64,000 bases of DNA from Spirochaetia bacterium (GTDB lineage: Bacteria; Spirochaetota; Spirochaetia; SZUA-6; Bin103): contig CBDBDQ010000005.1 of the NCBI GenBank assembly GCA_965203905.1, positions 4,160,001-4,224,000 on the forward strand, read 5' to 3'. Position numbers and translations under genes: made by a program. Below the pieces are notes generated by a model. That model worked only from the letters and a program-made list of their open reading frames with translations. It made no database searches and had not been told where the DNA came from. Positions 12,163 to 35,257 of the stretch are shown piece by piece; the first letter of the stretch is position 1, and each line of letters begins with the position of its first letter.

Positions 12163-13150
12163 CGACCCTGCTGGCGCCCCCGCGGCGTCCGCCCGCGCCG
12201 CAGGGCACGGGGTGCCGCGCGCCCAGCCGGACCGCGCCCACAGGCACGCCGTGTGGCACCGGCTGCGCCACCATCCAGGCGCCATCGCCGGCGCCGCCGT
12301 GTTCGCGGTGGTCGCGCTGGCGGTGCTGTTCGGCTCGTTCGTGCACGGCGTCGATCCTCACTACCTCGACTACCGCGCCAAGAACCAGGGCATGTCGCTG
12401 GCGCACCCGCTCGGCACCGACAACCTGGGCCGCGACACCTTCGCCCGCCTGCTGGCCGGCGGCCGCCTGTCGCTGGCGGTGGGCGTGGCCGCGATGACCC
12501 TGTCGCTGACCGTGGGCACGGTGATCGGCGTGTTGTCCGGCTTCTTCCGCCGCCTCGACGGCCCGCTGATGCGCTTCACCGACCTGTTTCTGGCGCTGCC
12601 CGTGCTGCCGCTGCTGATGGTCAGCACCATGCTGTTCCGCGAACCGCTGCGCGCGGCCTTGGGGCTGGAGGCGGGCATCTTCGTTCTCGTGGTGGGCGTG
12701 ATCGGCATCACGAGCTGGATGCAGACCGCCCGCATCGTGCGCGGACAGGTGCTCGCCATCCGCGTACGGGAATACGTGGTGGCCGCCCGCAGCATCGGCG
12801 CCCGCCCCTGGCGCATCATCCTGCGGCACGTGTTCCCCAACACGCTGAGCCCCATCGTGGTCGCCGCCACCCTGGACATCGCCCAGGCGATCATCACCGA
12901 GAGCGCCCTCAGCTTCCTCGGCCTCGGCTTCCCCTCCGACTTCCCCACCTGGGGCCGCCTGCTCTACGACGGCGTGCCCTTCCTCACCCTCACCCCGGAC
13001 CGCGTCATCTGGCCCGGCCTCGCCATCTCCCTCACCGTGCTCAGCGTCAACTTCCTCGGCGACGGCCTCCGCGACGCCCTCGACCCCCACGCCATATCTA
13101 TGAATCGCCGTACACGACGGGACGCTACCACGCCTCCCTCCGCGTCATAG
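12155..13150 (+). CDS. peptide ABC transporter permease (OppC-like)
   Basis: HPLGTDNLGRD, RHVFPN, PTWG, GDGLRDALDP. Confidence 0.94.
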   Translation: MTSDPAGAPAASARAAGHGVPRAQPDRAHRHAVWHRLRHHPGAIAGAAVFAVVALAVLFGSFVHGVDPHYLDYRAKNQGMSLAHPLGTDNLGRDTFARLLAGGRLSLAVGVAAMTLSLTVGTVIGVLSGFFRRLDGPLMRFTDLFLALPVLPLLMVSTMLFREPLRAALGLEAGIFVLVVGVIGITSWMQTARIVRGQVLAIRVREYVVAARSIGARPWRIILRHVFPNTLSPIVVAATLDIAQAIITESALSFLGLGFPSDFPTWGRLLYDGVPFLTLTPDRVIWPGLAISLTVLSVNFLGDGLRDALDPHAISMNRRTRRDATTPPSAS

Positions 13151-13936
13151 AATCTGCCCACCAAGCGATACAGCCGTTGCATCCTCAGCACCCAATAGCT
13201 TGAATTCATCTGCCTCCATTGGTTCATAGCCCTGAGGCCAATGACCGCCCAACTCGATCAGGACCCTCTGCTTCGACGGTGCCGGGACGGGATTCATTCT
13301 CACCACACGGGCCCGGTAATCGCCCGGTGAATGAGCCATCGCAGTCACTAGATCGCTGACCAAATACCGTGGAGCCCAGCCGATCATGTGGTACTTCGTC
13401 GTTTGAATCTGAACCGCCAGCGTAGTCTGTGGGTTAGTAAGCTCGATAGTCACGAAGAGCTTGTCATCGGGCTCCAGACGATCGATCGCTGCCTGAGCAT
13501 CAGTGTTCGTATGACGCCATCCGTGCAGAAAAAACCGGCAACTGAATGACCCATCAGGCTGTTTCCTGATCTTGGGAAATACCTGAAAATTGTCGGTCGC
13601 TCGGTAACCACCGTCTACCGCTAGGATCTCTAGCGGATCGGGAGACTCGTCGACAATATCGAGAAATGAAAGGTATTCGTAGAAGCTCCTACGCTGATAG
13701 TTCATGACACGATTCTTGAACAGTGGGAATAACCAAGAGGACGTATAGCGGTGATTGAAGTTTGGGAAATCGTACAGCGGAGCGAATCCACTCCGTGCCG
13801 CGGCCTCCGCCGCTCCTTGTGTGTAACCGAATGAGTACTGAGGCGGGGAGTCATCCACATCTAGCCTCCCAACCGGGTACCAGCGATGCGCACGGGGGTC
13901 TCGCCAGCCCAAGAACAGCGTTTTTTGATTGTTCAT
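13145..13936 (-). CDS. HIRAN-domain protein with HipA-N/HipS-like N-terminal region
   Basis: W..VGRL..Y.F.Y, LFPLFKNR, DPLEILA..GG.RATD N-terminal half; FFLHGWRH...E.TNP....AVQI....IGWAPRYL HIRAN-like C-terminal half; ATGA overlap with upstream kinase. Confidence 0.8.
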   Translation of the reverse strand: MNNQKTLFLGWRDPRAHRWYPVGRLDVDDSPPQYSFGYTQGAAEAAARSGFAPLYDFPNFNHRYTSSWLFPLFKNRVMNYQRRSFYEYLSFLDIVDESPDPLEILAVDGGYRATDNFQVFPKIRKQPDGSFSCRFFLHGWRHTNTDAQAAIDRLEPDDKLFVTIELTNPQTTLAVQIQTTKYHMIGWAPRYLVSDLVTAMAHSPGDYRARVVRMNPVPAPSKQRVLIELGGHWPQGYEPMEADEFKLLGAEDATAVSLGGQIL

Positions 13937-14853
13937 ACCAATGAATGTAACTCGCCGAGATTGTACGTGACAAGACGCACGACGAATTCTCTCGCCAAGC
14001 CACTCATCCAGGAAACAGGAATCTTGGAGACGATCTCCTGAACATGTTCTACGGTCAGATTATCGACCTTTCTCAGTGCATTACGAAAGAACATCCCGTA
14101 GTCGGGCTGTTCCACACCCCATCGAATCAACCCTAGGGGAGACGGTCCACGACGGCTGTCCTCGCTTACGAAAATCGCGCCAGGAGCCCGCTCGGAATAC
14201 CGATCGATTCCTAGTTCGTTCAGAATACGGTGTCGGCTCTTACCTCTTCCGGTATCCAGCAACTCGCGACCCAGTGAGGACGCGTGGTCGAATGTAGGTG
14301 CCAGACGACCCTTCAGATTGCCGTCAACAACCTTACCTAGGATGCCCCAATTTTCGTGATGGCGGTCTACATTGCCAATCACGGCATCAAGAAGGAGGTA
14401 CTCTGCAAGTCGCGATCGACATCGATCAGCGAATTCATCCGACGGGAAAACGCTCATACTGTGAAAGATCCGCTGAACCGTGTGCATACTGTGTCCGAAG
14501 CGTTGCGCAGGGTTGTAGGCTTCGTCAAGGCCGGCCAGAATCTGGTTGCCATGATACAACTCGTAGCCCGAAGCGAAACTCCTTGCCACCGATCCTCGCC
14601 TCCGCCCGCCACCCTGCTCGCAATACTGTGCAAGCTCTACCTTGGGTGCCGTTATACGCATCCTACGTGCGATCTCGTAGGCGACCTTCTCCGCCCAATG
14701 CTGACCAGTGTTCTCGGTGGGAAACTTGAACAACCAGTCACATTCTTGGGGGTCATCCGGATCTCGAAACCAAAATTTATCCTTGGTGCCCATTTGCTCG
14801 GACTGCGTCTCCCAGTGAGGATGGACATCCATGACAGGATAGTCTGAGCACAT
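13933..14853 (-). CDS. HipA-like Ser/Thr kinase (HipA C-terminal domain only)
   Basis: GTKDKFW, WLFK, HWAEKVAYE, DAVIGNVDRHHENWG catalytic loop, LAPTFDHASSLG. Confidence 0.85.
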   Translation of the reverse strand: MCSDYPVMDVHPHWETQSEQMGTKDKFWFRDPDDPQECDWLFKFPTENTGQHWAEKVAYEIARRMRITAPKVELAQYCEQGGGRRRGSVARSFASGYELYHGNQILAGLDEAYNPAQRFGHSMHTVQRIFHSMSVFPSDEFADRCRSRLAEYLLLDAVIGNVDRHHENWGILGKVVDGNLKGRLAPTFDHASSLGRELLDTGRGKSRHRILNELGIDRYSERAPGAIFVSEDSRRGPSPLGLIRWGVEQPDYGMFFRNALRKVDNLTVEHVQEIVSKIPVSWMSGLAREFVVRLVTYNLGELHSLV

Positions 14854-16948: not shown

Positions 16949-18826
16949 CTATGATTTGTCGGGCCAGCGGTAGTAGGCGGTGGAGCCTTCGATGGCCTCC
17001 ACGGCGCGTTCCATCGGGAAGCGGTACTGGACATCGTGCAGGCTGCCGCTCAGCACCTTGATGGCGCGCCGCAGCGGCTCCAGGGCCGGGCGCAGGTGGG
17101 GGGCCGCGGAGGGGGGTTGCGAGTCGAGCACGTTGGCGGCGCGGCCGCGGGTGACCGGCAGCGCGTGCTCCAGGGCGGCGATCAACGTCGGCAGCCCGGC
17201 GGGGTAGCGGCGCAGGCGGAACAGGCCGTCGGCGGCGGCGATGCGCACGCTCACCGCGGGGTCTTCGAGCGCGGCGGTGAACGCATCCACCACCTCCTGG
17301 TCGGCGCACTGCAGGATCACCAGCCCGGTGACCGCCCAGAAGCGGACCGCCGAATCGGGGTCGGCCAGCCGGCGCAGCAGCTCGGCACGCTGCCCCGGCC
17401 CGTGCCGGCTCAGGTCGGCGGTCTCAAGGATAGCCTCGTAGTTGTCGCACCGCTGCCCGACCAGCCACAGCGGGCCGCCAGCGGCGCGCTCGTGCAGCTC
17501 CGGCTCGTCGATCAGGCCCAGGTCGCGGTGCTCGATCATCCAGTCGTAGAGCTGGCGGCGCATCTCGTCCACCACCTCGGCGTGCTCGCCGGCCGGCACC
17601 AGGTCATCGACGAACCAGGGGTCCGTGGCACCGTCGTAGAGTTCCTCGAACGGCTTGCGCCGGGCTGCGATCTGGCGCTGCGGGCCGACCAGCTTGCCGG
17701 CGCGCGCCAGGCGGTCCCAGGCGTGGATGTAGCCGGACCAGTAGATCGAGGTCTCGTACGGGAAGTAGGGCAGGTGCGGGAAGAAGTTGCGCTGGTAGCG
17801 GAGGTGGCGGGCGCGCAGCGAACGGATCAGCTCGAAGCGGGTGTCGAGGCGGTCGCGGCCGGTCACCACGTGCGGGCGGTGCACGGCGCCGGCGCACAGG
17901 ACCGGGCGGCTGTGCATGTAGTCCGGCACCGGCAGCCCGGTCATCCTGAGCGTGGAGGCGGTCAGGTCGAGGGTGGTGATCGGCTCCTCCACCACCGCTC
18001 CCGGTTCGGCGGGAGCGAGGTGCTGCCAGCGCGGCGGGAAGCGCACGATCAGCGGCACGTGGTCGCCCTGCTCCCACCCCCAGTGCTTGGCGCGCAGCAT
18101 GCCGGTGCCGTGGTCGGCCCAGAACACCACGATGGTGTCGTCCCACACCCCGTCCTCCTGCAGCTCGGCGACGTGACGCCCGACGTGGTAGTCGATCTGG
18201 GTAATTGCGTCGTAGTAGTGCGACCACGCCGTGCGGAACTCGGGGATGTCGGGATGAAAGGGCGGCAGCGGCGCCTGCTCGGGATCGTGGAAGTCCTCCG
18301 GCTGCAGCAGCGTCACGCGCTCGGCGAGGATGGTCCCCTTCCGGTCCCAGGTCACGGACGAGTGGCACTCGGTGTAGTTGAACACCGAGAAGAACGGCTG
18401 GCCGGCACTCCGCTGTCGCCAGCGAGCACTGGCGCTCCATGCGTCCCATGCCTGCGCCATGATGGGGGCCGCAGCGTCGCTCCGCGGGTTTGAGGTGGCG
18501 GCCAGGTTGTAGTCGGTCTTGACGCAGTTGGAGGTGAAGTAGCCGGCGTCGCGCAGCCAGGCGGGCAGCAGGCGCAGGTGCTCCGGTGCGGCTACCCGGG
18601 AGCGGTGGTGGTGGGTGCCGAGTGCGAACGATACCACCCCGGTGATGATGGCCGCGCGGGAGACCGAGCACACCGGCGCCAGGGAATGGGCATTGGTGTA
18701 GCGGATGCCCTCGGCGGCCAGCGCGTCGAGGTTGGGGGTCCTGGCGTAGCGGTCGCCGTAGCAGCCGAGCAGCGGATTGATGTCTTCTACCGACACCCAG
18801 AGGATGTTCGGTTGCCGGCCATTCAC
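16949..18826 (-). CDS. Cys-type sulfatase with C-terminal HEAT-like repeats
   Basis: QPNILW, CSVSRAAIITG formylglycine motif, ADHG, EELYD...DP; C-terminal L.DPDSAVRFWA / LEDPAVSVRIAAA repeats. Confidence 0.92.
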   Translation of the reverse strand: MNGRQPNILWVSVEDINPLLGCYGDRYARTPNLDALAAEGIRYTNAHSLAPVCSVSRAAIITGVVSFALGTHHHRSRVAAPEHLRLLPAWLRDAGYFTSNCVKTDYNLAATSNPRSDAAAPIMAQAWDAWSASARWRQRSAGQPFFSVFNYTECHSSVTWDRKGTILAERVTLLQPEDFHDPEQAPLPPFHPDIPEFRTAWSHYYDAITQIDYHVGRHVAELQEDGVWDDTIVVFWADHGTGMLRAKHWGWEQGDHVPLIVRFPPRWQHLAPAEPGAVVEEPITTLDLTASTLRMTGLPVPDYMHSRPVLCAGAVHRPHVVTGRDRLDTRFELIRSLRARHLRYQRNFFPHLPYFPYETSIYWSGYIHAWDRLARAGKLVGPQRQIAARRKPFEELYDGATDPWFVDDLVPAGEHAEVVDEMRRQLYDWMIEHRDLGLIDEPELHERAAGGPLWLVGQRCDNYEAILETADLSRHGPGQRAELLRRLADPDSAVRFWAVTGLVILQCADQEVVDAFTAALEDPAVSVRIAAADGLFRLRRYPAGLPTLIAALEHALPVTRGRAANVLDSQPPSAAPHLRPALEPLRRAIKVLSGSLHDVQYRFPMERAVEAIEGSTAYYRWPDKS

Positions 18827-18830
18827 CGCG

Positions 18831-19853
18831 TTATCCCAGGGGAGCCGTACCCGGCCGGTCGCCGAGCGCGGCGAACAGCCGCCGCGAGCCGGTGAACGTG
18901 GAGCGCCCGTGCGCGGTCAGCATGTTGTCGAGGATGATCACGTCGCCGCGGCCCAGGGCGTAGGGCGTCTCCAGGTCGCAGACCATCCGGAACCACGCTC
19001 GGCACTCCTCGACGGTTATGGACGTGCCGTCTTCCATGATCATGCGGTGGAGGCTCTCCGGAGCGGCGGCCATCGTGTGCGCCAGGCGTTCGGCATCCGC
19101 CTGCCTGCCGTCCCGCTCCGCCGCCAGGCGCAGCGACTCCGGCTGAAAGGTCAGCGCCTGCGTGCACCACAGCTCGCCGTGGATCGGGTGTGAGCGGAAG
19201 AAGCGGGCCGGCTCCTGGGTGATCTCCAGGCACTCGTCGGCGGTCCACGCCAGCTCCCAGCCACGCTGTCGTGCGACCCGCTCGGCTTCCCGGCGATCGG
19301 CGGTGCCGAGCGACTCCTGCCAGCTCTTCCTGTCGGTGTAGGCCCCGTTGCTCTCGCTGGCCGGTGGCAACCGGCGCCGCAGGCGGGCGCGCTTGCCGCG
19401 GAACCTGCGCGTGAAGCTCTTGGGCAACCCCTTGGTAAAGGTGCGCATGTCGCCGATCAGGTTGGTCTTCTGGCCGTGCTCCGCCGGTTCCTGGCAGTAG
19501 AACGCAACATAGTCCGGTACATCGTCCAGGTACGCCATTTCCTGGTGCAGCAGGATGCACCGGTTGGGCGGCAGGTCGGTCGCCGAGTACACTCCGGCGG
19601 CGTACTCGGTGCGCGGGGTGGTGCCGCCGACGTACGAGTGCGGATGAAAATCAATCGCCTGGAGGAACGCGGCGAACTGGTGCGGGCCGCTCAGGCCGGT
19701 GTCCCGAATGAGCAACGCCCCCTCCGTGTCCACCAGCCGAAAGATCTCCGCGGCCAGCCCAGGGAGCGCCGTCCGGCCGCCATTCTCGGCCAGGCGCAGG
19801 CGCGCGCTGGGCACCGAGAAACCGTCTCCAAGCTGCTCCCGTTCGTATCGCAT
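18831..19853 (-). CDS. TauD/TfdA-family Fe(II)/2-oxoglutarate dioxygenase (SyrP-like)
   Basis: Y.GGT.PR, I.LHQEM, P....FYC, GDVIILDNMLTAHGR..F.G.R; GGAGG RBS before ATG 19853. Confidence 0.88.
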   Translation of the reverse strand: MRYEREQLGDGFSVPSARLRLAENGGRTALPGLAAEIFRLVDTEGALLIRDTGLSGPHQFAAFLQAIDFHPHSYVGGTTPRTEYAAGVYSATDLPPNRCILLHQEMAYLDDVPDYVAFYCQEPAEHGQKTNLIGDMRTFTKGLPKSFTRRFRGKRARLRRRLPPASESNGAYTDRKSWQESLGTADRREAERVARQRGWELAWTADECLEITQEPARFFRSHPIHGELWCTQALTFQPESLRLAAERDGRQADAERLAHTMAAAPESLHRMIMEDGTSITVEECRAWFRMVCDLETPYALGRGDVIILDNMLTAHGRSTFTGSRRLFAALGDRPGTAPLG

Positions 19854-20025
19854 ACCGCCCTCCAGGACCCGCGTCATGATATACCTCAAGCCGCCGGATG
19901 CTCCAGGCGCCGCTGGACTGGGCCTCCCGCGGTGCCATTCCAGGCCACCGCCGGTACCGACCTCGTTGACGTACCCCCGAGCGTGGCCAATACTGGCTCA
20001 TTCGCAGACTCCCAAGGAGGATCAG

Positions 20026-21357
20026 ATGAATCGACTTCGTGTCGTACCGACAATTGCCGTGCTGCTGTCCGCTTTCCTTGCCGGAAGCGTGTTCGCCAGC
20101 GGGACCGAGGAGGGCGCCACCGAGGAGCGCGGGCCTATCACCATGACCTACCTGCGCTTCGGCGGGCCCGACGACATCACCCAGGACGAGGCGTTGATCG
20201 CGCGCTGGGAGGAGCGCAATCCCGGCGACAAGATCGAGCCCCTGATCGCGCCGTTCCCGCAGTGGAAGGAGAAGCTGGACACCATGGTCGCGGGCGGACA
20301 GGCGCCCGACATCATCTTCGGCTGGCCGACGCCGTTCGCCAACCTGTGGGCCAACGAGCGCATCATCTCCCTGAACGAGCTGGTGCAGGCCGACGTCGAC
20401 TTCAACATCGACGACTACCCGCAACACAAGCAGTTCATCTTCGACGGCGAGCTCACCGGCATCCCCTACAACGCCACCGCCCACATCCTGGTCTACAACA
20501 AGACCATGTTCGAGGATGCGGGGCTGGAGACGCCGATCGAGATGTACAACCGCGGCGCCTGGAACTGGTCCAACGCCATCGAAGTGGCCAAGCAGTTGAC
20601 GGTCGACGAGGACGGCGACGGCGTGCCCGACCAGTACGGGATGGTGAACATGGGCGACAACCCGGTGCCGATCATGACCGCGGTGTGGGCTCACGGCGGC
20701 CGGCTGTTCAACGAGGACTTCACCGAGATCACCTTCGACACCCCCCAGGTGCACGAGGCGCTGCAGTTGCTGGTCGACCTGGTACGCACGCATGAGGTGG
20801 CGCCGCCGCCGGAGATGCAGGCGAGCGAGATCGGGATCTCCTTCAGCTCCGGCAAGGTGGCGATCGGGCGGCAGAGCGCCGCCACCATCATGCTGCGCCA
20901 CATCCGCTGGGAAGAGCCGTGGGAGTGGGACATCGTGCCGTTCCCGGCCGGTCCCGAGGGCTTCGCCGCGTGGGCGGACGGCAACAGCCTCGGCATCTCC
21001 GTCGGCGTGCCCGACAAGCACCTGGCGTGGGACTTCGTCACCTCCATGGTGGATGAGGAGTCGTGGCAGGTGCGCTTCGACCTGGGTCTCCCGTTCCGGC
21101 TGCCGCCCAACATCAAGGTGATCAACTCGGCCACCTTCCGCGAGCTGTGGAGCTATGTCGACGTGGACATGATCATGGACGTGATGCTCGGCGACAAGGC
21201 GCTCACGCCGCTGGTGCCGCGTCAGGCGGACGCGTTCCGCATCGCCTACAACGTGATGGACACCGAGGTGGAGAACGCGGTGCGCGGCGACATAACGGTC
21301 GAAGAAGCGATCGCCGCCACCGTCAAGCAGGCCAACGACATCCTGGCCGGCTTCTAG
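20026..21357 (+). CDS. carbohydrate ABC transporter substrate-binding protein
   Basis: AAGGAGG RBS, signal peptide ending VFASGTEE, GQAPDI, LVYNKTMFEDAG, WDIVPFP.GP. Confidence 0.9.
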   Translation: MNRLRVVPTIAVLLSAFLAGSVFASGTEEGATEERGPITMTYLRFGGPDDITQDEALIARWEERNPGDKIEPLIAPFPQWKEKLDTMVAGGQAPDIIFGWPTPFANLWANERIISLNELVQADVDFNIDDYPQHKQFIFDGELTGIPYNATAHILVYNKTMFEDAGLETPIEMYNRGAWNWSNAIEVAKQLTVDEDGDGVPDQYGMVNMGDNPVPIMTAVWAHGGRLFNEDFTEITFDTPQVHEALQLLVDLVRTHEVAPPPEMQASEIGISFSSGKVAIGRQSAATIMLRHIRWEEPWEWDIVPFPAGPEGFAAWADGNSLGISVGVPDKHLAWDFVTSMVDEESWQVRFDLGLPFRLPPNIKVINSATFRELWSYVDVDMIMDVMLGDKALTPLVPRQADAFRIAYNVMDTEVENAVRGDITVEEAIAATVKQANDILAGF

Positions 21358-21372
21358 CTTTCGATCGGTTTC

Positions 21373-21897
21373 TCAGGCGCTGCCCCGGCGTTCAGCCGCG
21401 GCAGCGCAGGGGGACGCGACGGGCGCCGTAGCCGGGCAGGCGGACCTGCTCGGCGCAGTAGTCCACGGCCGGGGAATCTTTGCCTCCCTACTCGGACGGT
21501 ATCCCAATCCCCAGACTCGGAGCAGATTGCGGGCTCCCTGTTCGAAATCCTGCGTAAAGTCAACCATCTGAAATCCTGACAACGTCCAAGAGAGATCCTC
21601 GTAGTCGCAAGATTCAAACATCAGTGGCACGATTCTGGCGTTCAGAGGGTCCTGTCGGAGAGCATAGGCAAGTTCTCGCTTGACCCAGGTCGAATTGACC
21701 GCACCCGGTGATAGCACAAGCACGAACCAGTCACATCGACGCAGAGCTGATCCAATCTCGTCGTGCCACTGCTGCGCTCCAACGATATCGGTACTGCTAT
21801 ACCAAACGGGGAGTCCGTGCCGCCGTAGCATCTCCGCCAGCCGGACGACGAAGCCCCGATCTCGATCCGAGTGTGAGAGGAATATCTCCTGCGGCAC
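21373..21897 (-). CDS. stand-alone TIR-domain protein
   Basis: IFLSHS..D, G...W, EI..AL, VLVLSP.AV.S.WVKRELAYA with the conserved Glu; last ~35 codons are read-through into a repeat. Confidence 0.9.
   Translation of the reverse strand: MPQEIFLSHSDRDRGFVVRLAEMLRRHGLPVWYSSTDIVGAQQWHDEIGSALRRCDWFVLVLSPGAVNSTWVKRELAYALRQDPLNARIVPLMFESCDYEDLSWTLSGFQMVDFTQDFEQGARNLLRVWGLGYRPSREAKIPRPWTTAPSRSACPATAPVASPCAAAAERRGSA
21401..21461. repeat. direct repeat copy A (duplicate of GH42 gene 3' end)
   Basis: 56 of 61 nt identical to 22502-22562 by manual alignment; minus strand reads YCAEQVRLPGYGARRVPLRC then RG*. Confidence 0.9.
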
Positions 21898-21933
21898 AGT
21901 ATGCTTCGGTTCGGGCGGCTGCGTGCGTGCGTC

Positions 21934-22356
21934 TCAGGCGACTTGCAGAAGAGTCCGAGCGACTTCCCTGATGCCCTCTTCTTCGCTCTCGTGTTCAGTA
22001 AGATTGATCATCTTCTGACGCCGGAGAATCCAGGGAACATCCTCGGTATCCAGCACGCTCGGATCGCCGGCAACAACGGGTATCAGACGTCTGCGGAAAC
22101 GCTTCTTGGTGAGGGCATACTCAATCTCCCAACGCATCTCCCAACGCGCCCATTGCGAACGCACCGAGTCTGGTGTCAGAAGTACGACCATTGCCTGGGA
22201 CTCTTGCAGCGCGTTACTTACTTCCTGTGCCCAGTTATCTCCTGGCAGGATCTCGCGCGTGGCATCCCACACCTCCAAGCCAGACTCCTGCAGGGTCGCG
22301 GCAACCTTGTGGGCCAGCCGTTCATCGGAATGTGCGTGGCTGATGAATACCTTCAC
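21934..22356 (-). CDS. stand-alone TIR-domain protein
   Basis: VKVFISHAHSD, GLEVWD...ILPGDNW, VVLLTPDSVRS..W...EIEYAL, LIPV; GTG start at 22356. Confidence 0.9.
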   Translation of the reverse strand: MKVFISHAHSDERLAHKVAATLQESGLEVWDATREILPGDNWAQEVSNALQESQAMVVLLTPDSVRSQWARWEMRWEIEYALTKKRFRRRLIPVVAGDPSVLDTEDVPWILRRQKMINLTEHESEEEGIREVARTLLQVA

Positions 22357-22447
22357 TTCTACCTGCCGACCACGTGGCTCGACTCCGATGCTTGGCGAGC
22401 GGCGACTTGCGCTGGCCGACCAAGCGGGAAGCGTGCCCGGAGCGGTT

Positions 22448-24496
22448 TCAGGATACCTCACCAGCCTGACAGCCGGCAACTCCCGGGGCAGGCTGCTCCG
22501 GGCGGCGCAGGGGGACGCGGCGGGCGCCGTAGGCGGGCAGGCGGACCTGCTCGGGGCGGTAGCCGCGCGCGGCCGCGGTGACCGTCCAGGGGTATCCGGA
22601 GCGGTTGATCAGGAACAGCAGGCTGCCGGCAGTGCTCTCAAGCACCCGCGCCTCGACCAGCGAGCGGTATTCCTCCGGCACCTCGCCGGTCAGTTCGATG
22701 TCGGGCGGCAGGGTGGCGGGCAGCCAGCCCGCCAAGAGGCGGCGCAGGCCGCGGTGCAGGGACCACAGGTAGGAGCGGCCCAGGGCGAAGGTGGCCACCA
22801 GGAGGCGGCCCTCCGGGCCGGTGGCGACCAGGCCGGGCGCGTCCACGTCGCGGTAGCGCGCCAGTTCCGAGCCGGCGAACCGGCCAGCCAGCACGCGGTC
22901 GAAGAAGGCGAAACCGCCGAAACCGCCTTGCGCGTCGTTCAGGCTCCAGCCGGCCATCCAATGGTCGGGCCGGATCCACTCGCGGCACTCCATGCCGAAA
23001 GCGGCGGCCGCCCGCCGGCTGTCCTCGAGGCCGGTCATCGGCAGTTCCACGACCGCGCGCCCGCCGCCGGCCACGAAAACGGTGAGACCATCCAACTCGT
23101 CAGCCGACAGTCCCAGTGGAAACGGAACGGCCACCAGCTCCAGGCCGCCACCCGCCGGCGGGAAGCTGCCCCCGGTAACGAAGGTCACCTCGTAGCCCAG
23201 GTCCAGGAACAGCCCGTAGAGGCCGTACACGGTGTCCGCCAACGGCGCTCCGCGGGCGTTGGCCTGCCACACCATCTCGCGGCTCAGGTAGATCGCCACC
23301 CGCGCCGGCACCGTGCGCGCCCCCGCCAGCAGCTCCGCATCGGCACGCAACTCGGCGATCACCCGCTTCGTCGCCAGCCGCCGCTCGGTGTCGTACTCGT
23401 CGGCGTCCACCATGTGGTTGATCCATGGTTCCGGTCCGCTCAGCAGCGGCTCCCAGCGGTAGAAGAACAGGGCGTCGGCGCCGTGGCTTGCCACCTGGTT
23501 GACCTCCGCCTCGATCTGGATGCCGCGCCACAGCAGCGAGGCGCTGGCGTCGCGGCCGGCGCCGGCGTACGGGAACGGTCCGCCCTGAAACTCGGTGATC
23601 CACAGCTCCTGCTCCGGGGCCAGCGCCTTCAGCAGCGCCAGGTGGGCGCCGGAGATCGCCGCGGTCTGCGCCCCCGAGCCGTGGTACAGGCTGGACGAGG
23701 TGTAGTCGAGCCGTGGCAGCAGCCACCAGTCCTGGCCCTTGGCCTGCAGCCCATCGAAGTGGGTGTAGTTGAAGCTCACCCGTACGCCGGGACACTCGGC
23801 GCGGATGATGTCGGCTCCCTCCAGCAGAAAGGCCGACAGCCGCCGCGCCGAGAACTCGCGCCAGTCGCGCCACAGGCCGGCGGGGTCCGGGTCGGCCTCG
23901 CGCGGCGGCTCAAGGTCCGCGAAGCCGGCGAACGCGGTGCCGAAGCGCGCGTTGACCGCCTCGATGCTGCCGCAGCGGCGCTCCAGGTCGGCCCGGTAGC
24001 CGGCCACCGAGTGCTCGCAGTAGCAGGGATGGTCGCCCACGCCCAGGTTGGGCTCGTTGTGGATGTCCCAGTCGAAGATCGCGGGATGGCCGCAGAAGCG
24101 GCGCGCGCTGGCCCGCACCAGGTCGTCACGGCGGCGCCGGTACGCGGGATGGTCGACGCAGGCACGCGGCCACAGGTAGTGGTGCGGGCCCTCCGGATAG
24201 GCGTTGCCGCCGCGATCCACCACCTTGGCGTCGGGGTGCTCCTCGAAGAACGGGTAGCCGACGTAGAAGGTGGCGAACCCGAACAGCACCCCCACCTCCA
24301 GCTCGGCGCACAGGTCGAGCAGCCGCCCCACCTCGTCGCTGTCGCTGTCGAAGCCGATGCGGATGCGGATGGCGTCGAACCCGGTGTCCTTGATCAGCGC
24401 CAGGTCGCGGCGCCAGTCCTGCTCGCCGCGCGGCAGCCACTCGGGACGCGTCGCCATTCCGCCGAACGGATACTCGTAGTGGGTGCCGAAGATCAC
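22448..24496 (-). CDS. GH42-like beta-galactosidase family glycoside hydrolase
   Basis: WRRDLALIKDTGF, WDIHNEP acid/base, CYCEHS, WITEFQGG nucleophile, trimerisation-type C-terminal domain. Confidence 0.85.
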   Translation of the reverse strand: MIFGTHYEYPFGGMATRPEWLPRGEQDWRRDLALIKDTGFDAIRIRIGFDSDSDEVGRLLDLCAELEVGVLFGFATFYVGYPFFEEHPDAKVVDRGGNAYPEGPHHYLWPRACVDHPAYRRRRDDLVRASARRFCGHPAIFDWDIHNEPNLGVGDHPCYCEHSVAGYRADLERRCGSIEAVNARFGTAFAGFADLEPPREADPDPAGLWRDWREFSARRLSAFLLEGADIIRAECPGVRVSFNYTHFDGLQAKGQDWWLLPRLDYTSSSLYHGSGAQTAAISGAHLALLKALAPEQELWITEFQGGPFPYAGAGRDASASLLWRGIQIEAEVNQVASHGADALFFYRWEPLLSGPEPWINHMVDADEYDTERRLATKRVIAELRADAELLAGARTVPARVAIYLSREMVWQANARGAPLADTVYGLYGLFLDLGYEVTFVTGGSFPPAGGGLELVAVPFPLGLSADELDGLTVFVAGGGRAVVELPMTGLEDSRRAAAAFGMECREWIRPDHWMAGWSLNDAQGGFGGFAFFDRVLAGRFAGSELARYRDVDAPGLVATGPEGRLLVATFALGRSYLWSLHRGLRRLLAGWLPATLPPDIELTGEVPEEYRSLVEARVLESTAGSLLFLINRSGYPWTVTAAARGYRPEQVRLPAYGARRVPLRRPEQPAPGVAGCQAGEVS
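22502..22562. repeat. direct repeat copy B (within GH42 3' end)
   Basis: Encodes YRPEQVRLPAYGARRVPLRR; matches 21401-21461. Confidence 0.9.
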
Positions 24497-24499
24497 CGG

Positions 24500-25369
24500 T
24501 CAGCCCTTGATCCCGGTGGTCACCACGCCGTGGATGTAGTACTTCTGCGCCACGAAGAACAGCGCCACGCTCGGCACCAGCACGATGATCGACACCGCCA
24601 TCAGGCTCGTCCAGTCGGTGAAGTCCTGGTCCTGAAAGAAACGCAGGCCCAGCGACAGCGTCATCTTGTCCATCGAGTGGATGTAGATCAGCGGCTCCAG
24701 GAAGTCGTTCCACACCCGGATGAAGGCGAACACCCCCACCACCCCGAGCACCGGGCGCGACAGCGGCAGGATGATCAGCAGGAAGCTGGCGAACACCCCC
24801 GCGCCGTCGATGGCGGCGGCATCCTCCATCTCCAGCGGAATGGTGAGAAAGAACTGGCGCACCAGGAATATGAAGAACGGCACTCCCCCGAAGAAGAACG
24901 GCACGATCAGCGGCAGGTAGGTGTCGATCCAGCCGAGAAAGCGGAAGGTGATGAACATCGGAATCAGGCGCACGTGGAACGGCAGCATCATGGTGCTCAG
25001 CAGGATCACGAACAGGGTGGTGCGGCCCGGGAACTCCAGGCGGGCGAAGCCGTAGGCCACCAGCGAGGAGGAGATAACGGCGCCGGACACCGACAGCAGG
25101 GTGATGACCGAGGTGTTGAAGAACCAGCGCGTGAACGGCAAGGCGGTCCAGCCGTCGCTGAAGTTGTTCCAGCGCAGCGGCCGGGTGAACAGCTGCGGCG
25201 GATAGATGAACTCGGTGCCCGGCACCTTGACCGCGGTGGACAGCATCCAAATGAACGGCGCCAGGATCACCACGCCGCCGGCGGCCAGGGCCAGGTAGAC
25301 GAACGCCAGGGTGATGCGGCGCTTGAACGATTGCCGTTCGTAGTAGCGGACCAGGGTCACGCTCGACAT
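24500..25369 (-). CDS. carbohydrate ABC transporter permease (MalG-like)
   Basis: P.EMEDAAAIDGA EAA loop, WNDFLEPLIY, QKYYI.G...TGIKG. Confidence 0.95.
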   Translation of the reverse strand: MSSVTLVRYYERQSFKRRITLAFVYLALAAGGVVILAPFIWMLSTAVKVPGTEFIYPPQLFTRPLRWNNFSDGWTALPFTRWFFNTSVITLLSVSGAVISSSLVAYGFARLEFPGRTTLFVILLSTMMLPFHVRLIPMFITFRFLGWIDTYLPLIVPFFFGGVPFFIFLVRQFFLTIPLEMEDAAAIDGAGVFASFLLIILPLSRPVLGVVGVFAFIRVWNDFLEPLIYIHSMDKMTLSLGLRFFQDQDFTDWTSLMAVSIIVLVPSVALFFVAQKYYIHGVVTTGIKG

Positions 25370-25376
25370 GCCGATG

Positions 25377-26240
25377 CTACTTCCGCGACTCGTAGTACAC
25401 CCAGGCCGCGGACGAGCGCAGCACCACGAGGGTCATGCCGAGGATGAGAACGAACAGGATCCACGCCTGTGCGGCGGCGTAGCCCATGCGATACCACTGG
25501 AACGCGTGCCGGTACAGGTACAGCACGTACATCAGGCTGCCGTGGTTGGGACCGCCATCGGTCATCACGTAGGCGGGCGTGAACACCTGGAACGACTGGA
25601 TGATGCCCATGATCAGGTTGAACAGGATCACCGGCGAGATCATCGGCACGGTGATCTTCAGGAACCGCTGCCAGGCGTTGGCGCCATCCACGATCGCCGC
25701 CTCGTAGTAGGAGGTGGGTACGTTCTGCAGCGCCGCCAGGTAGATCAGCATCGGCCCGCCGACGCCCCACAGGCTCATGATGATCAACGCCGGGATCACC
25801 CAGGTCTCGTCCGCCAGCCAGGCCGGTCCCTCGATCCCGAACACCTCCCTCAGAAACAGGTTGAAGATGCCGAAGCGCGGGTTGAAGATCCATACCCACA
25901 GCAGCGACACCGCCACTCCTACGATCACGCTCGGCAGGTAGTAGATGGTGCGGAAGAAGCCGAGCCCCTTGATCTTCTGATTGAGCAGCACGGCGATCAG
26001 CAGCCCGAACACCAGGTTGAGCGGGATGCTCAGCGAGTAGAGGGCGGTGACCTTGAGCGACTTCCAGAACAGCGGGTCGTCGAAGAACAGCTTGGCGTAG
26101 TTCTTGAAGCCGATGATCTGCGGCTTGGAGAGCGCGTTCCAGTTGGTGAAGCTCAGGAACAGCGACGCCAGCAGCGAGCCCACCACGAACACCAGGAAGC
26201 CGATCACCCACGGCGAGATGAACACGTACCCGGCGATCAT
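25377..26240 (-). CDS. carbohydrate ABC transporter permease (MalF-like)
   Basis: GYVFISPW.IGF, YEAAIVDGA, TDGGP, MGYAAA.AW. Confidence 0.95.
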   Translation of the reverse strand: MIAGYVFISPWVIGFLVFVVGSLLASLFLSFTNWNALSKPQIIGFKNYAKLFFDDPLFWKSLKVTALYSLSIPLNLVFGLLIAVLLNQKIKGLGFFRTIYYLPSVIVGVAVSLLWVWIFNPRFGIFNLFLREVFGIEGPAWLADETWVIPALIIMSLWGVGGPMLIYLAALQNVPTSYYEAAIVDGANAWQRFLKITVPMISPVILFNLIMGIIQSFQVFTPAYVMTDGGPNHGSLMYVLYLYRHAFQWYRMGYAAAQAWILFVLILGMTLVVLRSSAAWVYYESRK

Positions 26241-27053
26241 GCGTTTCTGGTGGTAGGTATACAGGGCCGGCCCCCGGCGCCGAGACTATCACAGCCCCGC
26301 ACCTCCGGCCACCGCAGACCGGCATGAGCCACGTGTGGCCCGTCGTAGCCACACGCCTCGCGCGCCGGCTCGCCGTACCGCCCGCCGTGGAGCGCCCTGG
26401 ATCCGCTGATGGGTCGCCGTGGTCACCGTGACCGACAGGATGCCGCGTCAGCCGATGAGCGAGGTGTGGTGCCTCTGCAGCACGGCGGAAACATCCGCTG
26501 CTAATCTTGGTCATCCGAGTAAACAGGTGGGCTCACGTGAAAGGCATGCCGAAGCCGGGAGCCGCCCTTACCACGTCCTCGACCTCGTCACGCGCGAGCC
26601 TGTCGAGCGGACGTACCGTGTCATGGGCAAACGGCCAATCCTGGGTCAGAAACGCCCAAGCGTTCATGAGAATCAAGGTGTCACCCGTCGGTCCGTTCGC
26701 GAAATGGCGAATTTGTTGTCAGTTTCGCGACTGCTACGCCAATTCGTGAATTTGGCAGATTGATTTCGTCGCATTGCTCTACGATCTTGACTGTTCCCAT
26801 CAGATTGTTGTAGAGGAACGATTTACTCATGCTGGTTCTGAATCGTGCATAGGATCAGACCTGTCGCGAAATCGCGAACTTCAGGGTAGATTCGGGAAGT
26901 TCCGCCGATTCGCGAATTCGCGAGAGAGAATCAGGTGCTTGGCGAGAATTGGGGCCCAACATCGTGCTTGCCGTCACTCGTTCCGGGACGCTAAAATGTG
27001 GACAGAGGGTTTGTTATTCCACCCATCACTTACCCTCCAATAGGAGGCCCACC

Positions 27054-27539
27054 ATGGCGAACCAGGAAGGCACTTCCGGCCACGACGTGATTCACGGCGA
27101 CGCGGACGGCGACAGGATCGAGGGCGGCGCCGGCTACGACTTCATCTATGGCGGCAGTGGTGCGGACGAACTGTATGGCGGCGAAGGCAAGGACCACCTG
27201 TTCGGCGGCGAGGGCGACGACACACTCGTAGGCGGTGCGAGCGTCGACCACATGACCGGCGGTGCGGGCGCGGACACGTTTGTGTTCGGCCCGGGACACG
27301 GATACGACTACATTCACGACTTCACCGATGGTGAAGACGTAGTCGACCTCACCGCGCTCACCGGCATCTCCGGTTTCGAGGACCTCACCATCACCGCCTA
27401 TGGGGAGGACGCCATCGTCGACCTGACCGCACACGGCGGAGGCCACATCCACCTTCGCAACGTCGACGTCGCCGATCTGGACGCCAACGACTTCCTGTTC
27501 TACGTGCCTACTACGGAGGCTGCCCAGGACGGCATGTAG
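27054..27539 (+). CDS. small RTX/hemolysin-type calcium-binding repeat protein
   Basis: AGGAGG RBS; tandem GGxGxD nonapeptides, D.I.DFTDGED.VDL and C-terminal DFLF motif. Confidence 0.88.
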   Translation: MANQEGTSGHDVIHGDADGDRIEGGAGYDFIYGGSGADELYGGEGKDHLFGGEGDDTLVGGASVDHMTGGAGADTFVFGPGHGYDYIHDFTDGEDVVDLTALTGISGFEDLTITAYGEDAIVDLTAHGGGHIHLRNVDVADLDANDFLFYVPTTEAAQDGM

Positions 27540-33639: not shown

Positions 33640-33932
33640 CGGCGCCGGGACTTCGCGACGTAGTGATCGACGGTGGGATCGGTCGGGATGCGGACGCAGA
33701 GGTAGGCGCACACCCGATCATAGGCAGCCTGGAGATCGCCGAGGGCGTGGCGCCAGTAGGGCGGGAAGCTCGTGGCCGGAATCATGTCCCTGGAGTCGGC
33801 AACCTGATCGAACGGTATGCCCGCGCGCCGCTGCGGCGTTTCCCCGACGAGTTCCGCGACAGCCCGCAATCCCGGCTGTCGGACAGTGCGGTCGAAGTCC
33901 GCCGGTTCCGGAGCCGGCGTTATCGGAATCAC
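33640..33932 (-). pseudogene. truncated HNH-like endonuclease partner of the ATPase
   Basis: GTGA overlap with ATPase; PEPADFD..VRQPG...FPPYW...AY..VCAY...TVDHYVAKS then similarity is lost before the CN motif. Confidence 0.7.
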
Positions 33933-35257
33933 GGCGTGCCGCCGCACCGTTCGACAAATGCATTCCAGCGCACCCAGAACGTGTCCATGTCGGGCAGTGC
34001 CGCGCCCAGCGCTCTGTGCGCCGCCATGACGTCTGCCAACCGGGGTTCTGGCTCGCGCAGCAACGCCCGCGCGCGAACAATCGCCTCCTCTGCCTCGACA
34101 CTCCCGCGATCGGTCGGCAAGTCGAAGGCTTCGCTGGTGAGCCACGCACCGGCGCCGCCCTGGGGCAGGTAGTGGCGCTCCCGCAAGACGGCGTGCGGGG
34201 GATCACCCTCCAGATCGAGGTCGAACCAAGCGTCCTGCTCCGGGTCGAACCACGCCTCGGCGGAGGCCATCACCAGAGGCGAGTGTGTCGTCGCGACAAG
34301 CTGGAGGTTCGCGTTGCCCAGTAACTCGTTGCCGAGGTTGCGAAGCGAACTCAGAATCGTGCGCTGCCATCGCGGATGCAGGTGACTCTCGACCTCGTCG
34401 AACAGCATGACAACGCTGTCCGTCGCTCTTCGACCGAAATGGCGTGCCGCGAGGCGATGTTCGATCCACGCCCATGTGAGAATGTAGGCCAAGGCACACA
34501 CGCGACGTACGCCGGAAGCGGCGTGCACAATCGGGACTGCCCCGGCGTATGCAGTGAGAATGGTCGGGATGTCCCGGGAGTCCTGAATGCTCAGACGACG
34601 AGCCGGGCCCACGCTGAGGGGGTCGCCATCTGCGGGAGACAAAGTTTCAAGTGCGGCCCGCATGGCGTCGGCGTTACTCCGGTCGCGATCCTTGATCCAA
34701 CTGGACCAGTCGAACAGCAAGCCGTTGCAAGCAGGAACTCGGCGGCCGCGAGACTCTTCCCACAGGCCGTCCCAGACCTCGGACTCGGAGAACACATACG
34801 CGGGCCACTGGTCAACACCGCGAAGGCTGCGCTTCTCCAGACCCGGAGGAGTGTTGTTTTCGAGGCCGCCTAGGTAGTTACGTAACGGATCCCATACGGA
34901 CATGGAGCCATCCGCGTGGGCATACACAACCAAGCTCTCTCCCCCTGCGGCGGAACGGAGCCATCTCTCCTGCACCTGCGACCATTCTCCCGTGATGGCC
35001 CGCGCGTTCGCGGCCGCGCCGATTCTGGCTTCGATCGTCGCCGACGCTTCCATGTCCCCAGGTCTTGCCGGAAACCCTACGGTCAACCGTGGGTTCACAT
35101 CGTGAGGCCAATGCCCAGTAAGAACCCACCAAGCCGCATCCATGACGAAAGTCTTTCCCAGGCCGTTGTCGCCAGTGAGCAAGTTTACGCTGCGCCCATA
35201 CGCAAGTTCCATATCAGGAGCAGGTCCGACATTCCGGAGTCTCAGGTGGTCAAGCAT
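33929..35257 (-). CDS. ABC/SMC-type ATPase (AAA_21-like, PtuA/AbiEii-like)
   Basis: LRNVGP, TGDNGLGKT, ASG.RR signature, FDEVESHLHPRWQR, ATTHSPLV. Confidence 0.88.
   Translation of the reverse strand: MLDHLRLRNVGPAPDMELAYGRSVNLLTGDNGLGKTFVMDAAWWVLTGHWPHDVNPRLTVGFPARPGDMEASATIEARIGAAANARAITGEWSQVQERWLRSAAGGESLVVYAHADGSMSVWDPLRNYLGGLENNTPPGLEKRSLRGVDQWPAYVFSESEVWDGLWEESRGRRVPACNGLLFDWSSWIKDRDRSNADAMRAALETLSPADGDPLSVGPARRLSIQDSRDIPTILTAYAGAVPIVHAASGVRRVCALAYILTWAWIEHRLAARHFGRRATDSVVMLFDEVESHLHPRWQRTILSSLRNLGNELLGNANLQLVATTHSPLVMASAEAWFDPEQDAWFDLDLEGDPPHAVLRERHYLPQGGAGAWLTSEAFDLPTDRGSVEAEEAIVRARALLREPEPRLADVMAAHRALGAALPDMDTFWVRWNAFVERCGGTP

Follow-up and report, generated by a model that had tools for sequence, protein, structure and literature searches.

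What can two TIR genes do when they stand side by side, each coding for little more than the TIR domain itself, with no effector gene next to them? The question is raised by positions 21373-22356 of a 64,000-nucleotide stretch from a Spirochaetia bacterium (GTDB lineage Bacteria; Spirochaetota; Spirochaetia; SZUA-6; Bin103; GenBank assembly GCA_965203905.1, contig CBDBDQ010000005.1, positions 4,160,001 to 4,224,000 of the forward strand), here called the window, in which a first-pass annotation made from the letters alone had noticed a tandem pair of TIR genes, named here TIR-B and TIR-A. Innate immunity in animals, in plants and in bacteria makes common use of TIR domains. In the available portions of the sources, bacterial TIR signalling systems join a TIR protein to a separate effector (PMC12578639, 10.64898/2025.12.03.692087), and the effector-less ones of Escherichia coli are single-gene (PMC11350192).

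In the reading favoured here, to which we give an even chance, the pair is a self-contained mobile two-TIR module. TIR-A would be an enzyme that cleaves nicotinamide adenine dinucleotide (NAD+), TIR-B, for the most part non-catalytic, would be the partner by which that enzyme is restrained or regulated, and the module would act through abortive infection or in the manner of a toxin-antitoxin (TA) system.

Two bare TIR genes in tandem

The locus consists of the following genes:

21934..22356, minus strand: TIR-B, upstream gene, 140 amino acids (aa), bare TIR domain, the faster-evolving partner
21373..21897, minus strand: TIR-A, downstream gene, 174 aa, with the bare TIR domain in residues 1-137

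Both genes lie on the minus strand in the order B then A, separated in the window by 36 nucleotides (nt). The listed open reading frame (ORF) of TIR-B is longer (21934..22479), and the GTG at 22356 (VKVFISH...), which is conserved in relatives, sets the protein at 140 aa. Each protein matched Pfam TIR_2 (PF13676) over the full domain, TIR-A with an E-value of 1.9e-28 and 99.8 bits and TIR-B with 2.4e-25 and 89.8 bits (cut-off 28), and the Pfam scan of the two proteins returned TIR-family matches only and no further domain. To each other they are 29% identical over 133 residues (E 7e-20).

In relatives, TIR-A stops after 137 aa (...GYRPE*), and alignment with them showed this to be the ancestral end. 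One nucleotide has been lost from the window copy near 21490, directly 5' of the ancestral stop, which leaves the TIR domain untouched; translation therefore reads through into a flanking repeat, which supplies the last ~38 residues of the 174. The G+C content is 0.57-0.61 over 21250-22499, against 0.67-0.74 in either flank. The earlier description of a co-oriented, mutually divergent, TIR-only pair of lower G+C content than its flanks was thus borne out, including its exact span of 21373-22356, by the ORF coordinates, the conserved GTG, the presence of TIR_2 alone, the low identity between the two proteins and the base composition.

The catalytic motif is constant in one partner and eroded in the other

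In an alignment of 114 pairs, TIR-A carried the tryptophan and the glutamate of a W-x-x-x-E motif (W71 and E75) in every sequence (114/114), whereas the glutamate column of TIR-B held E in 80, D in 20, N in 12 and S in 2 of the 114, and its tryptophan column held W in only 34/114. Profile searches against solved structures aligned E75 of TIR-A (STWVKRE) with the glutamate of the AbTir W-x-x-x-E stretch, and the first E of the TIR-B EIEYA motif with the glutamate of BtTir, so that the glutamate which had been assigned to the catalytic position of both window proteins is indeed found there. The best solved matches of the TIR-A profile were NAD+-cleaving TIRs (NADases), with AbTir first (E 4.3e-11), followed by PdTIR and BtTir; those of the TIR-B profile included metazoan TIR-STING and MyD88 TIR domains. 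TIR-A accordingly has the sequence feature of enzymatic NADase TIRs, the catalytic-position glutamate in the W-x-x-x-E context.

AlphaFold models built from the family alignments adopted the TIR fold, with mean predicted confidence (pLDDT) of 91.7 for TIR-A and 82.9 for TIR-B. All matches listed by Foldseek at E<=0.001 were TIR domains, 135 chains for TIR-A and 172 for TIR-B. The top matches of TIR-A were the SPARTA TIR-APAZ protein (8oz6_A, E 4.4e-7), SARM1 and AbTir, and those of TIR-B were the MAL and MyD88 filaments, AbTir and SPARTA. In PADLOC, Aga_TIR was among the top TIR-A matches (E 2.4e-15), covering model positions 4-130 of 430. Neither NCBIfam nor PHROGs contained a family at or near its cut-off for the pair.

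The window TIR-B also carries a 12-nt tandem duplication (22126-22137, minus strand; codons 71-74), which reads RWEM-RWEI at the position of the catalytic glutamate and adds a second glutamate. The RWEM insert was present in 2 of the 114 sequences and was seen only in the copies that the genus carries at this chromosomal site (the window genome, G000, and G001, G004 and G006); in G004 the residues after the insert are NIAYAL in place of EIEYAL.

TIR-A is linked to TIR-B across phyla

Linkage was followed in contigs of one genome per species, with the best 80 of 279 relatives as TIR-A-anchored loci and 80 of 89 as TIR-B-anchored loci, and was counted by a tblastn script over the 156 loci from both lists. 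TIR-B lay immediately upstream of TIR-A, on the same strand, in 79/80 TIR-A-anchored loci, and a complete adjacent pair was present in 133/156 loci, which gave 113 distinct pair sequences. The gaps between B and A, taken from the ends of the tblastn hits, were mostly 20-60 nt; with heuristic start calls, the spacer had a median of 21 nt and did not exceed 60 nt in 109/113. The conservation of the two-gene arrangement, a check that the first-pass annotation had put forward, is therefore established in these loci.

An exhaustive search of representative sequences with TIR-A returned 35,416 matches at E<=0.001 and 81 at E<=1e-30. Representatives at least 50% identical to TIR-A were nearly all single-TIR proteins of ~95-200 aa, with one exception of 636 aa (P0016), and the two genes are thus not fragments of longer ones. 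Fused forms were a minority and more distant. One of them (P0006, 288 aa) carries a TIR-B-like domain in front of a TIR-A-like one, a natural fusion in gene order, and another (P0096) pairs a B-like domain with an A-like one that has an internal deletion. TIR-A-like domains that are more distant also stand at the head of other architectures, in the manner of effector domains, among them NB-ARC/TPR (P0114) and TPR (P0146) proteins.

By record titles, which are depositors' labels and were counted by eye, the carriers belong to a dozen or more phylum-level groups. They include Spirochaetia, Poribacteria, Latescibacterota, Binatia, Gemmatimonadota, Chloroflexota, Planctomycetota, Verrucomicrobiota, Armatimonadota, KSB1 and Caldithrix, together with Acidobacteriota (many Pyrinomonadaceae, Blastocatellia), Cyanobacteria (Nostoc, Leptolyngbyaceae) and gamma-, alpha- and delta-proteobacteria. 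The best foreign copies of TIR-A, from other phyla, are 60-73% identical. Within the order of the window organism, 6/81 genomes had an intact TIR-A orthologue (E<=1e-30), 4/11 in its genus, 2/9 in a sister genus and 0/61 elsewhere. Other copies of the pair stand at unrelated sites. The pair in G005 has a TPR protein on one side and transposases of the IS1595/IS110 type on the other. G018, which belongs to another genus, has it next to an Xre-type antitoxin, an AAA_21 ATPase and two large proteins, a DEAD/Helicase_C/MZB/S24 protein of 1979 aa and a NACHT protein of 1421 aa. An ISAzo13-family transposase interrupts TIR-B in G014, where TIR-A is reduced to its first ~30 codons. Such patchy spread across phyla is the pattern of a horizontally moving accessory module.

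Many of the carriers have titles of sponge-associated lineages (Poribacteria, Latescibacterota, Binatia) or of Nostoc, and related sequence is present in runs labelled sponge metagenome. Together with the metazoan TIR-STING and MyD88 domains among the best solved matches of TIR-B, this could suggest that the proteins are eukaryote-like TIRs of the TcpB/BtpA type, with which a symbiont interferes with the TIR immunity of an animal or plant host, or with phagocytosis. However, the pair is equally found under titles of soil Pyrinomonadaceae/Blastocatellia, Planctomycetota, Verrucomicrobiota and Competibacteraceae, neither protein has a domain beyond TIR, and no secretion-system gene was linked to the pair among the neighbour clusters and the 29 sampled loci described below. 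A host-directed role would also leave the strict two-gene linkage and the one-sided decay of the pair unexplained, and it is regarded as extremely improbable.

Several other TIR sequences were met in these searches. The top TIR-A bit scores belonged to P0001-P0005 and many others, proteins of ~1200-2300 aa with 5-7 TIR stretches, each ~27-31% identical to TIR-A. A chimeric TIR gene (L172:2205-2595, plus strand) combines a TIR-B-like N-terminal third with a TIR-A-like C-terminal part, and has apparently arisen via deletion between the two paralogues. The genome of the window holds at least three further TIR_2 matches outside it (L003, L004 and L005, the latter two in other regions of contig C5); that at L003:1480-2337 (plus strand) encodes 285 aa and has its TIR domain at the N terminus (E 7.1e-15).

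TIR-A decays beside TIR-B, and rarely the reverse

Decay of TIR-A was counted in the 80 TIR-B-anchored loci minus four in which TIR-B was <38% identical. Beside the 76 recognisable TIR-B genes, 52 loci had an intact TIR-A, 16 had one broken by truncation, frameshift or stop, and 8 had none. In the reverse count, over the 80 TIR-A-anchored loci, TIR-B was intact in 78, absent in one and at a contig end in another, that is, intact in 78/79. Four Poribacteria-titled genomes keep only TIR-B, at one shared site, and in-frame stops in TIR-A were seen in L063/L114 and in L126. By eye, the losses of TIR-A amount to ~18 separate events. Such one-sided decay is expected from a toxin and its neutraliser and would not be predicted if both genes were merely needed together; it is what would be expected if losing B alone were harmful and losing A were not.

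The A and B distance matrices were correlated (r=0.71, reached in 0/999 Mantel permutations), which shows joint inheritance and transfer, not binding. TIR-B diverges ~1.37x faster than TIR-A. The median ratio of nonsynonymous to synonymous substitution rates, from 28 non-overlapping sequence pairs, was 0.18 for A (n=23) and 0.17 for B (n=27), and both genes are under purifying selection.

The asymmetry between the two proteins could also be that of a sensor and an enzyme. TIR-B would recognise a phage protein and recruit or activate TIR-A, which would then deplete NAD+ directly, B being an activator and not a restraint. A precedent exists in the split between ThsB1 and ThsB2, in which, by the available portion of the source, the glutamate of the sensor is dispensable (PMC12578639). 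The faster evolution and greater variability of TIR-B are what an arms race would produce, and the catalytic motif is kept in every TIR-A (114/114). On the other hand, orphan A and B genes would in that case be equally useless and should decay alike, and they were lost or broken in 24/76 and 1/79 loci, respectively. In addition, TIR-B is a bare protein of ~136-140 aa, whereas the ThsB1 residues F242 and E318 given in the same portion of that source put its TIR domain after a long N-terminal part. This explanation is thought unlikely.

No effector gene accompanies the pair

The surroundings of the pair were compared by clustering 3314 ORFs located within 4 kb of the 113 distinct pairs. No third recurrent gene was found, the top neighbour cluster being present in 9/113 loci. 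The top clusters reflect lineage-specific synteny, and their sampled members are mostly housekeeping genes; the recurrent neighbours sampled include UppS, CdsA, TruA, enoyl-CoA hydratase, XdhC, NusB, IleRS, NadC, RadC and PRK. Pfam assignments of 145 flanking ORFs from 29 diverse loci were likewise mostly housekeeping (GyrA, PriA, DnaE, aconitase, AMO and others), and none of these flanking ORFs was of the Piwi/Argonaute type.

Within the window, 46 ORFs were scanned, six of them at E<=0.01 and 40 at E<=1e-6, a set that excludes the two ORFs at 24500-25369 and 25377-26240. None of the 46 matched SIR2, Macro, STING, SLOG or Argonaute/Piwi families or STAND/NLR-type families (NACHT, NB-ARC), in agreement with the first-pass annotation, which had seen no SIR2, Macro, STING, NLR or Argonaute gene nearby. 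Relevant features here were:

24500-25369 and 25377-26240: two ORFs, ABC permease-like by eye
7691-9247: generic AAA_35/AAA_22 ATPase, ~12 kb from the pair

No SIR2_2 match was found in the genome of the window, which is 98.7% complete, and no STALD match either, a weak negative in that the search matched no control genome. Neither the 113 loci nor the window ORFs showed a linked effector gene of the Thoeris type, and the genome gave no match to one, with the same reservation for STALD, whose control matched nowhere. The possibility that the pair normally stands beside a ThsA-type effector, which would have undone the first-pass proposal, is contradicted by the neighbour clusters, the most widespread of which reaches 9 of 113 loci, and by a genome without SIR2_2 or STALD matches.

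These data bear on whether TIR-B and TIR-A are a pair of ThsB-like signal synthases of the Thoeris type, whose product, akin to cyclic ADP-ribose (cADPR), activates an effector encoded elsewhere in the genome. TIR-B scores above the cut-off of Pfam ThsB_TIR (28.7 bits; cut-off 21.2), TIR-A reaching 18.0 bits, and both proteins match PADLOC ThsB models (E 1e-7 to 1e-10), the matches to SAVED_TIR and Aga_TIR models being stronger. Multi-TIR Thoeris systems exist, for example type III, according to the available portion of 10.64898/2025.12.03.692087, and at one locus (L022) the pair directly follows a ThsB_TIR gene and an 8xMP gene. Nevertheless, no effector-like gene is linked to the 113 distinct loci, the genome has no SIR2_2 or STALD match (the latter a weak negative), the NCBIfam model of the type III protein ThcB4 gave 29.6-33.7 bits against a cut-off of 220, and a two-gene cassette that crosses phyla would rarely meet a matching effector. 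We consider such a role quite improbable.

The prevalence of housekeeping neighbours suits a further explanation, namely a non-conflict pair for NAD+/ADP-ribose signalling or turnover, or else a selfish addiction cassette of no benefit to the host. Genes of NAD or ADP-ribose metabolism do occur nearby (a NUDIX gene beside a solo TIR-B, an ADP-ribosylglycohydrolase, and NadC in 6 loci), and the purifying selection on both genes would agree with it. However, the pair is patchy, with presence and absence differing inside a genus, pseudogenes and disruption by insertion sequences (IS) are frequent, and copies that are 60-73% identical across phyla are typical of conflict or selfish genes and not of core physiology. 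This explanation, too, is held to be rather improbable.

Two loci of unusual composition were recorded. In L018 (9020-9442 and 9485-9961, plus strand), a site shared with L118:5962-6942, a TIR-B-like gene without TIR-A, which has 62% identity to the window TIR-B, is directly followed by a NUDIX hydrolase gene in the TIR-A position; the hydrolase is possibly an alternative partner of TIR-B tied to ADP-ribose chemistry. In L022 (4406-5479, plus strand), which is Latescibacterota-titled, a ThsB_TIR gene (E 1.2e-16) and a gene for an 8xMP octameric membrane protein (E 3.9e-38) lie directly upstream of the pair, and an S-subunit fragment of a type I restriction-modification system and an HNH gene lie downstream; these surroundings look like a small defence island.

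Expression signals

Heuristic start calls gave TIR-B an ATG start in 104/113 pairs and a Shine-Dalgarno-like motif in 43, and TIR-A an ATG start in 65/113 and such a motif in 18. This bias would fit a TIR-B that is made in excess.

A putative promoter of the cassette was located by eye:

22450..22479, minus strand: TTGCCG (22479-22474), 18-nt spacer, TATCCT (22455-22450)

It lies ~94 nt upstream of the TIR-B start and is a weak proposal, being a loose motif only. Similar boxes (TTGCCG/TTGCGG-N17-18-TA(A/T)GCT) were present in the cassettes of other genomes, and the loose pattern occurred in 39/111 loci, compared to 16.7 expected from shuffles. A consensus promoter/terminator scan gave 0 sites at the cassette. 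An Rfam scan of 21200-22700 revealed no riboswitch or known RNA in the leader, the lone match, to a long non-coding RNA, being at chance level (E 0.91).

Contigs from RNA libraries of two sponge-metagenome studies cover both genes at ~90-97% likeness, and three of them bridge the spacer (X17 record 13, 21764-22381; X15 record 5; X16 record 12).

A proposed mechanism and what weighs against it

In the favoured reading, TIR-A would be the enzyme, an NAD+-cleaving TIR of the AbTir/SARM1 type, and TIR-B its cognate partner, a TIR paralogue in which catalysis has mostly been abandoned. TIR-B would most likely restrain TIR-A like an antitoxin, and might also sense the trigger. When triggered, most probably by an infecting phage, TIR-A would self-associate and either consume NAD+ or make a cADPR-type product, and the growth of the infected cell would stop, by abortive infection or in a TA-like manner, with no separate effector. 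We infer that A has NADase activity and that B physically binds and restrains it, as we do the trigger and the part played in defence. Restraint by B is favoured because of the one-sided decay, the translation signals and the natural fusion. The layout is also that of a type II TA system, two small adjacent co-oriented genes with the proposed neutraliser first.

The first-pass annotation had left three options for the pair. That of an enzyme with its regulator or inhibitor is now preferred, whereas a symmetric hetero-filament and two signalling sensors have lost ground, in view of the asymmetry of the motif and the one-sided decay.

Several observations weigh against this mechanism. The glutamate of TIR-B is retained in 80/114 sequences, including the window copy (E77), and B may therefore be catalytic in many lineages. 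TIR-A occurs without TIR-B in L069, one locus among the 80 TIR-A-anchored, where A alone is either tolerated or silent. The decay counts are not phylogenetically independent, and they come from two differently ascertained lists (top 80/279 against 80/89). By Pfam, TIR-B has no DNA-binding domain, and the pair is therefore no classical autoregulated type II TA module. Restriction, TA, phage, mobile or defence-like neighbours were present in only ~9/29 sampled loci, most sites being among housekeeping genes. Finally, the RNA evidence consists of assembled contigs, with possible DNA carry-over and no readable transcript ends.

The pair is an insertion between two host genes

The insertion site was compared in 30 related genomes and in that of the window, in which its elements are arranged as follows:

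21462..22500, minus strand: inserted segment of ~1039 nt, with leader/promoter, TIR-B, 36-nt spacer and TIR-A; G+C content below that of the flanks
22501..22562, no strand: upstream copy of a 62-nt direct repeat, the functional 3' end of the GH42 gene (repeat search)
21400..21461, no strand: downstream relic copy, 62 nt, the duplicated 3' end of the GH42 gene, which in another frame forms the tail of TIR-A
22448..24496, minus strand: host gene of a GH42-family glycosidase (Pfam Glyco_hydro_42, E 3e-29), whose 3' end received the insertion
19699..21357, plus strand: host gene of a solute-binding protein (Pfam SBP_bac_1, E 1.2e-27), outside the cassette, convergent and bounding the site

The two copies of the 62-nt repeat are imperfect (92% identical) and spaced by 1101, with the relic copy located just before the stop of the convergent solute-binding-protein gene, a gene that is conserved beside the site in relatives. 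The last codons of the GH42 gene are now derived from the cassette; at the empty site its native end is ...RIPLHRPG*, followed by a hairpin. That empty site is found in a congener (G007), in which the two host genes abut and a single copy of the repeat is present. Relative to it, the TIR pair is an insertion. In G004 and G006, the pair is at the same site, with proteins 83-84% (TIR-A) and 70-77% (TIR-B) identical to those of the window, and in G001 the site holds TIR-B and an internally deleted TIR-A.

Another genome (G008, L011:891-1490, plus strand) has at the same intergenic spot a gene for a 199-aa putative restriction endonuclease of the Uma2 family (Pfam E 4.7e-31), and the spot between the GH42 and solute-binding-protein genes seems to be a hotspot for small cassettes.

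The cassette was also flanked by imperfect, host-specific direct repeats in 4/108 other loci tested (L098, L077, L044 and L088), or 5/109 with the window. The repeats at those loci are 46-77 nt long, with scores of 32-37 compared to a control maximum of 11, and the organisms are differently titled. At two of the five loci, the window and L077, the upstream copy coincides with the 3' end of the host gene that precedes the cassette. As the sequence of the repeat differs host by host, it is a target duplication and not a fixed attachment site. Homology between cassettes stops at the stop codon of TIR-A and within ~100-150 nt upstream of TIR-B. No recombinase was conserved beside the pair in the neighbour clusters of the 113 loci. 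These long target duplications with no linked recombinase could point to an undescribed insertion route.

Two known kinds of element were considered and rejected. An integron cassette does not agree with the lack of an attC-like hairpin, by eye, and of a conserved recombinase adjoining the pair. A transposon does not agree with the lack of a conserved adjoining transposase, the IS elements in G005 and G014 being local events. A plasmid collection contained no orthologue (best match 41.7% identical), nor did a phage collection (best match 31.1% identical), so that neither kind of vehicle could be linked to the cassette.

A more tentative proposal takes all this one step further, namely that the pair could be the smallest complete TIR immune system. 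It would be an effector-less cassette in which a TIR pseudo-enzyme, TIR-B, guards, neutralises or senses for the NADase TIR-A, and which moves across a dozen or more phyla as a ~1-kb unit, maybe with its own promoter and with no recombinase, its recent insertions leaving unusually long, host-specific target duplications of 46-77 nt where host genes end (3').

Relation to known systems

The native AbTir, PdTIR and BtTir proteins have extra N-terminal regions, and to our knowledge none of them belongs to a TIR-TIR gene pair. Their solved chains (7uwg/7uxu, 3h16 and 7uxr, respectively), which comprise the TIR domains only, share the fold of TIR-A and are its best sequence matches among solved structures, but at only ~23-26% identity. 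SPARTA TIR-APAZ, the top structural match of TIR-A, uses a TIR as an NAD+-depleting effector. It differs in that the proteins of the pair end after the TIR and lack APAZ, the match being confined to the first ~130 of 430 model positions, and in that the scanned neighbours include no Argonaute gene.

RES-Xre and MbcT-MbcA are small mobile two-gene TA modules that target NAD+ and are dispersed among genes unrelated to them, in which the first product neutralises an NAD+-destroying second one and orphan first genes are common. Their antitoxins are DNA-binding, of the Xre type and unrelated to their toxins, whereas the candidate antitoxin TIR-B is a paralogue of the enzyme and has no DNA-binding domain. 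In plants, RPS4/RRS1 is a heteromeric TIR pair in which one member restrains the other, the TIR domains being parts of large nucleotide-binding leucine-rich repeat receptors. The homology seen to the present pair (PDB 4c6t, among the Foldseek matches of TIR-B) is that of the TIR fold.

In the available portion of PMC12578639, the staphylococcal Thoeris system ThsA-ThsB1-ThsB2 (Roberts et al. 2025) has one TIR protein that senses, with a dispensable glutamate, and another that catalyses. It resembles the pair in having two different TIR proteins side by side with divided labour. Unlike the pair, by the same portion, it requires the effector ThsA and ThsB1 has a large non-TIR part, whereas here two bare TIRs of ~140 aa have no linked effector in 113 loci. 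Short single-protein TIR systems protect E. coli; by the available text of PMC11350192, they are effector-less, depend on the active site and kill or arrest the infected cell. Compared by the description given there, these TIR-V/VI/IX systems share with the pair the absence of an effector and the TIR-only composition, the antiphage role of the pair being a proposal, but they consist of one gene each and not of two obligatorily linked, divergent TIR genes.

Conflict systems based on TIR NADases are an already known kind. No TIR-TIR-only operon or TIR-based TA pair was found in the available portions of the literature; the supplementary tables of the survey 10.64898/2025.12.03.692087, outside this search, might list such clusters. 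A strictly linked pair of bare TIRs, with a split into enzyme and pseudo-enzyme and no effector, has probably not been described. That systematic survey, by its available text, removed standalone TIR proteins, and the module, which is widespread (279 TIR-A relatives in one-genome-per-species contigs), would escape effector-centred surveys.

The pair offers a very small and tractable model of how one TIR controls another, by hetero-oligomerisation, inhibition or licensing, and of how catalytically dead 'scaffold' TIRs, such as the adaptors of animal Toll-like receptors, originate from enzymatic TIRs. The recurrent long target duplications with no linked recombinase are a separate puzzle about the movement of tiny cassettes.

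Other features of the window

Elsewhere in the window, the following genes were identified, three of host context and four of accessory type:

16949-18826, minus strand: sulfatase with C-terminal HEAT repeats (host context)
18831-19889, minus strand: TauD-family dioxygenase (host context)
26949-27539, plus strand: small RTX calcium-binding-repeat protein (host context)
33929-35257, minus strand: AAA_21 (AbiEii-like) ATPase (accessory-type)
47877-49424, minus strand: AAA-ATPase_like and PDDEXK_9 nuclease (accessory-type)
51769-52899, plus strand: HSDR_N restriction-enzyme N-terminal fragment (accessory-type)
54104-54772, minus strand: IS1595-family transposase (accessory-type)

A patch of lower G+C content (0.53-0.58) at 13145-14853, minus strand, contains a HipA_C kinase-like gene (E 9e-11) and an adjacent HIRAN-domain gene, and may be another acquired module of the toxin type.

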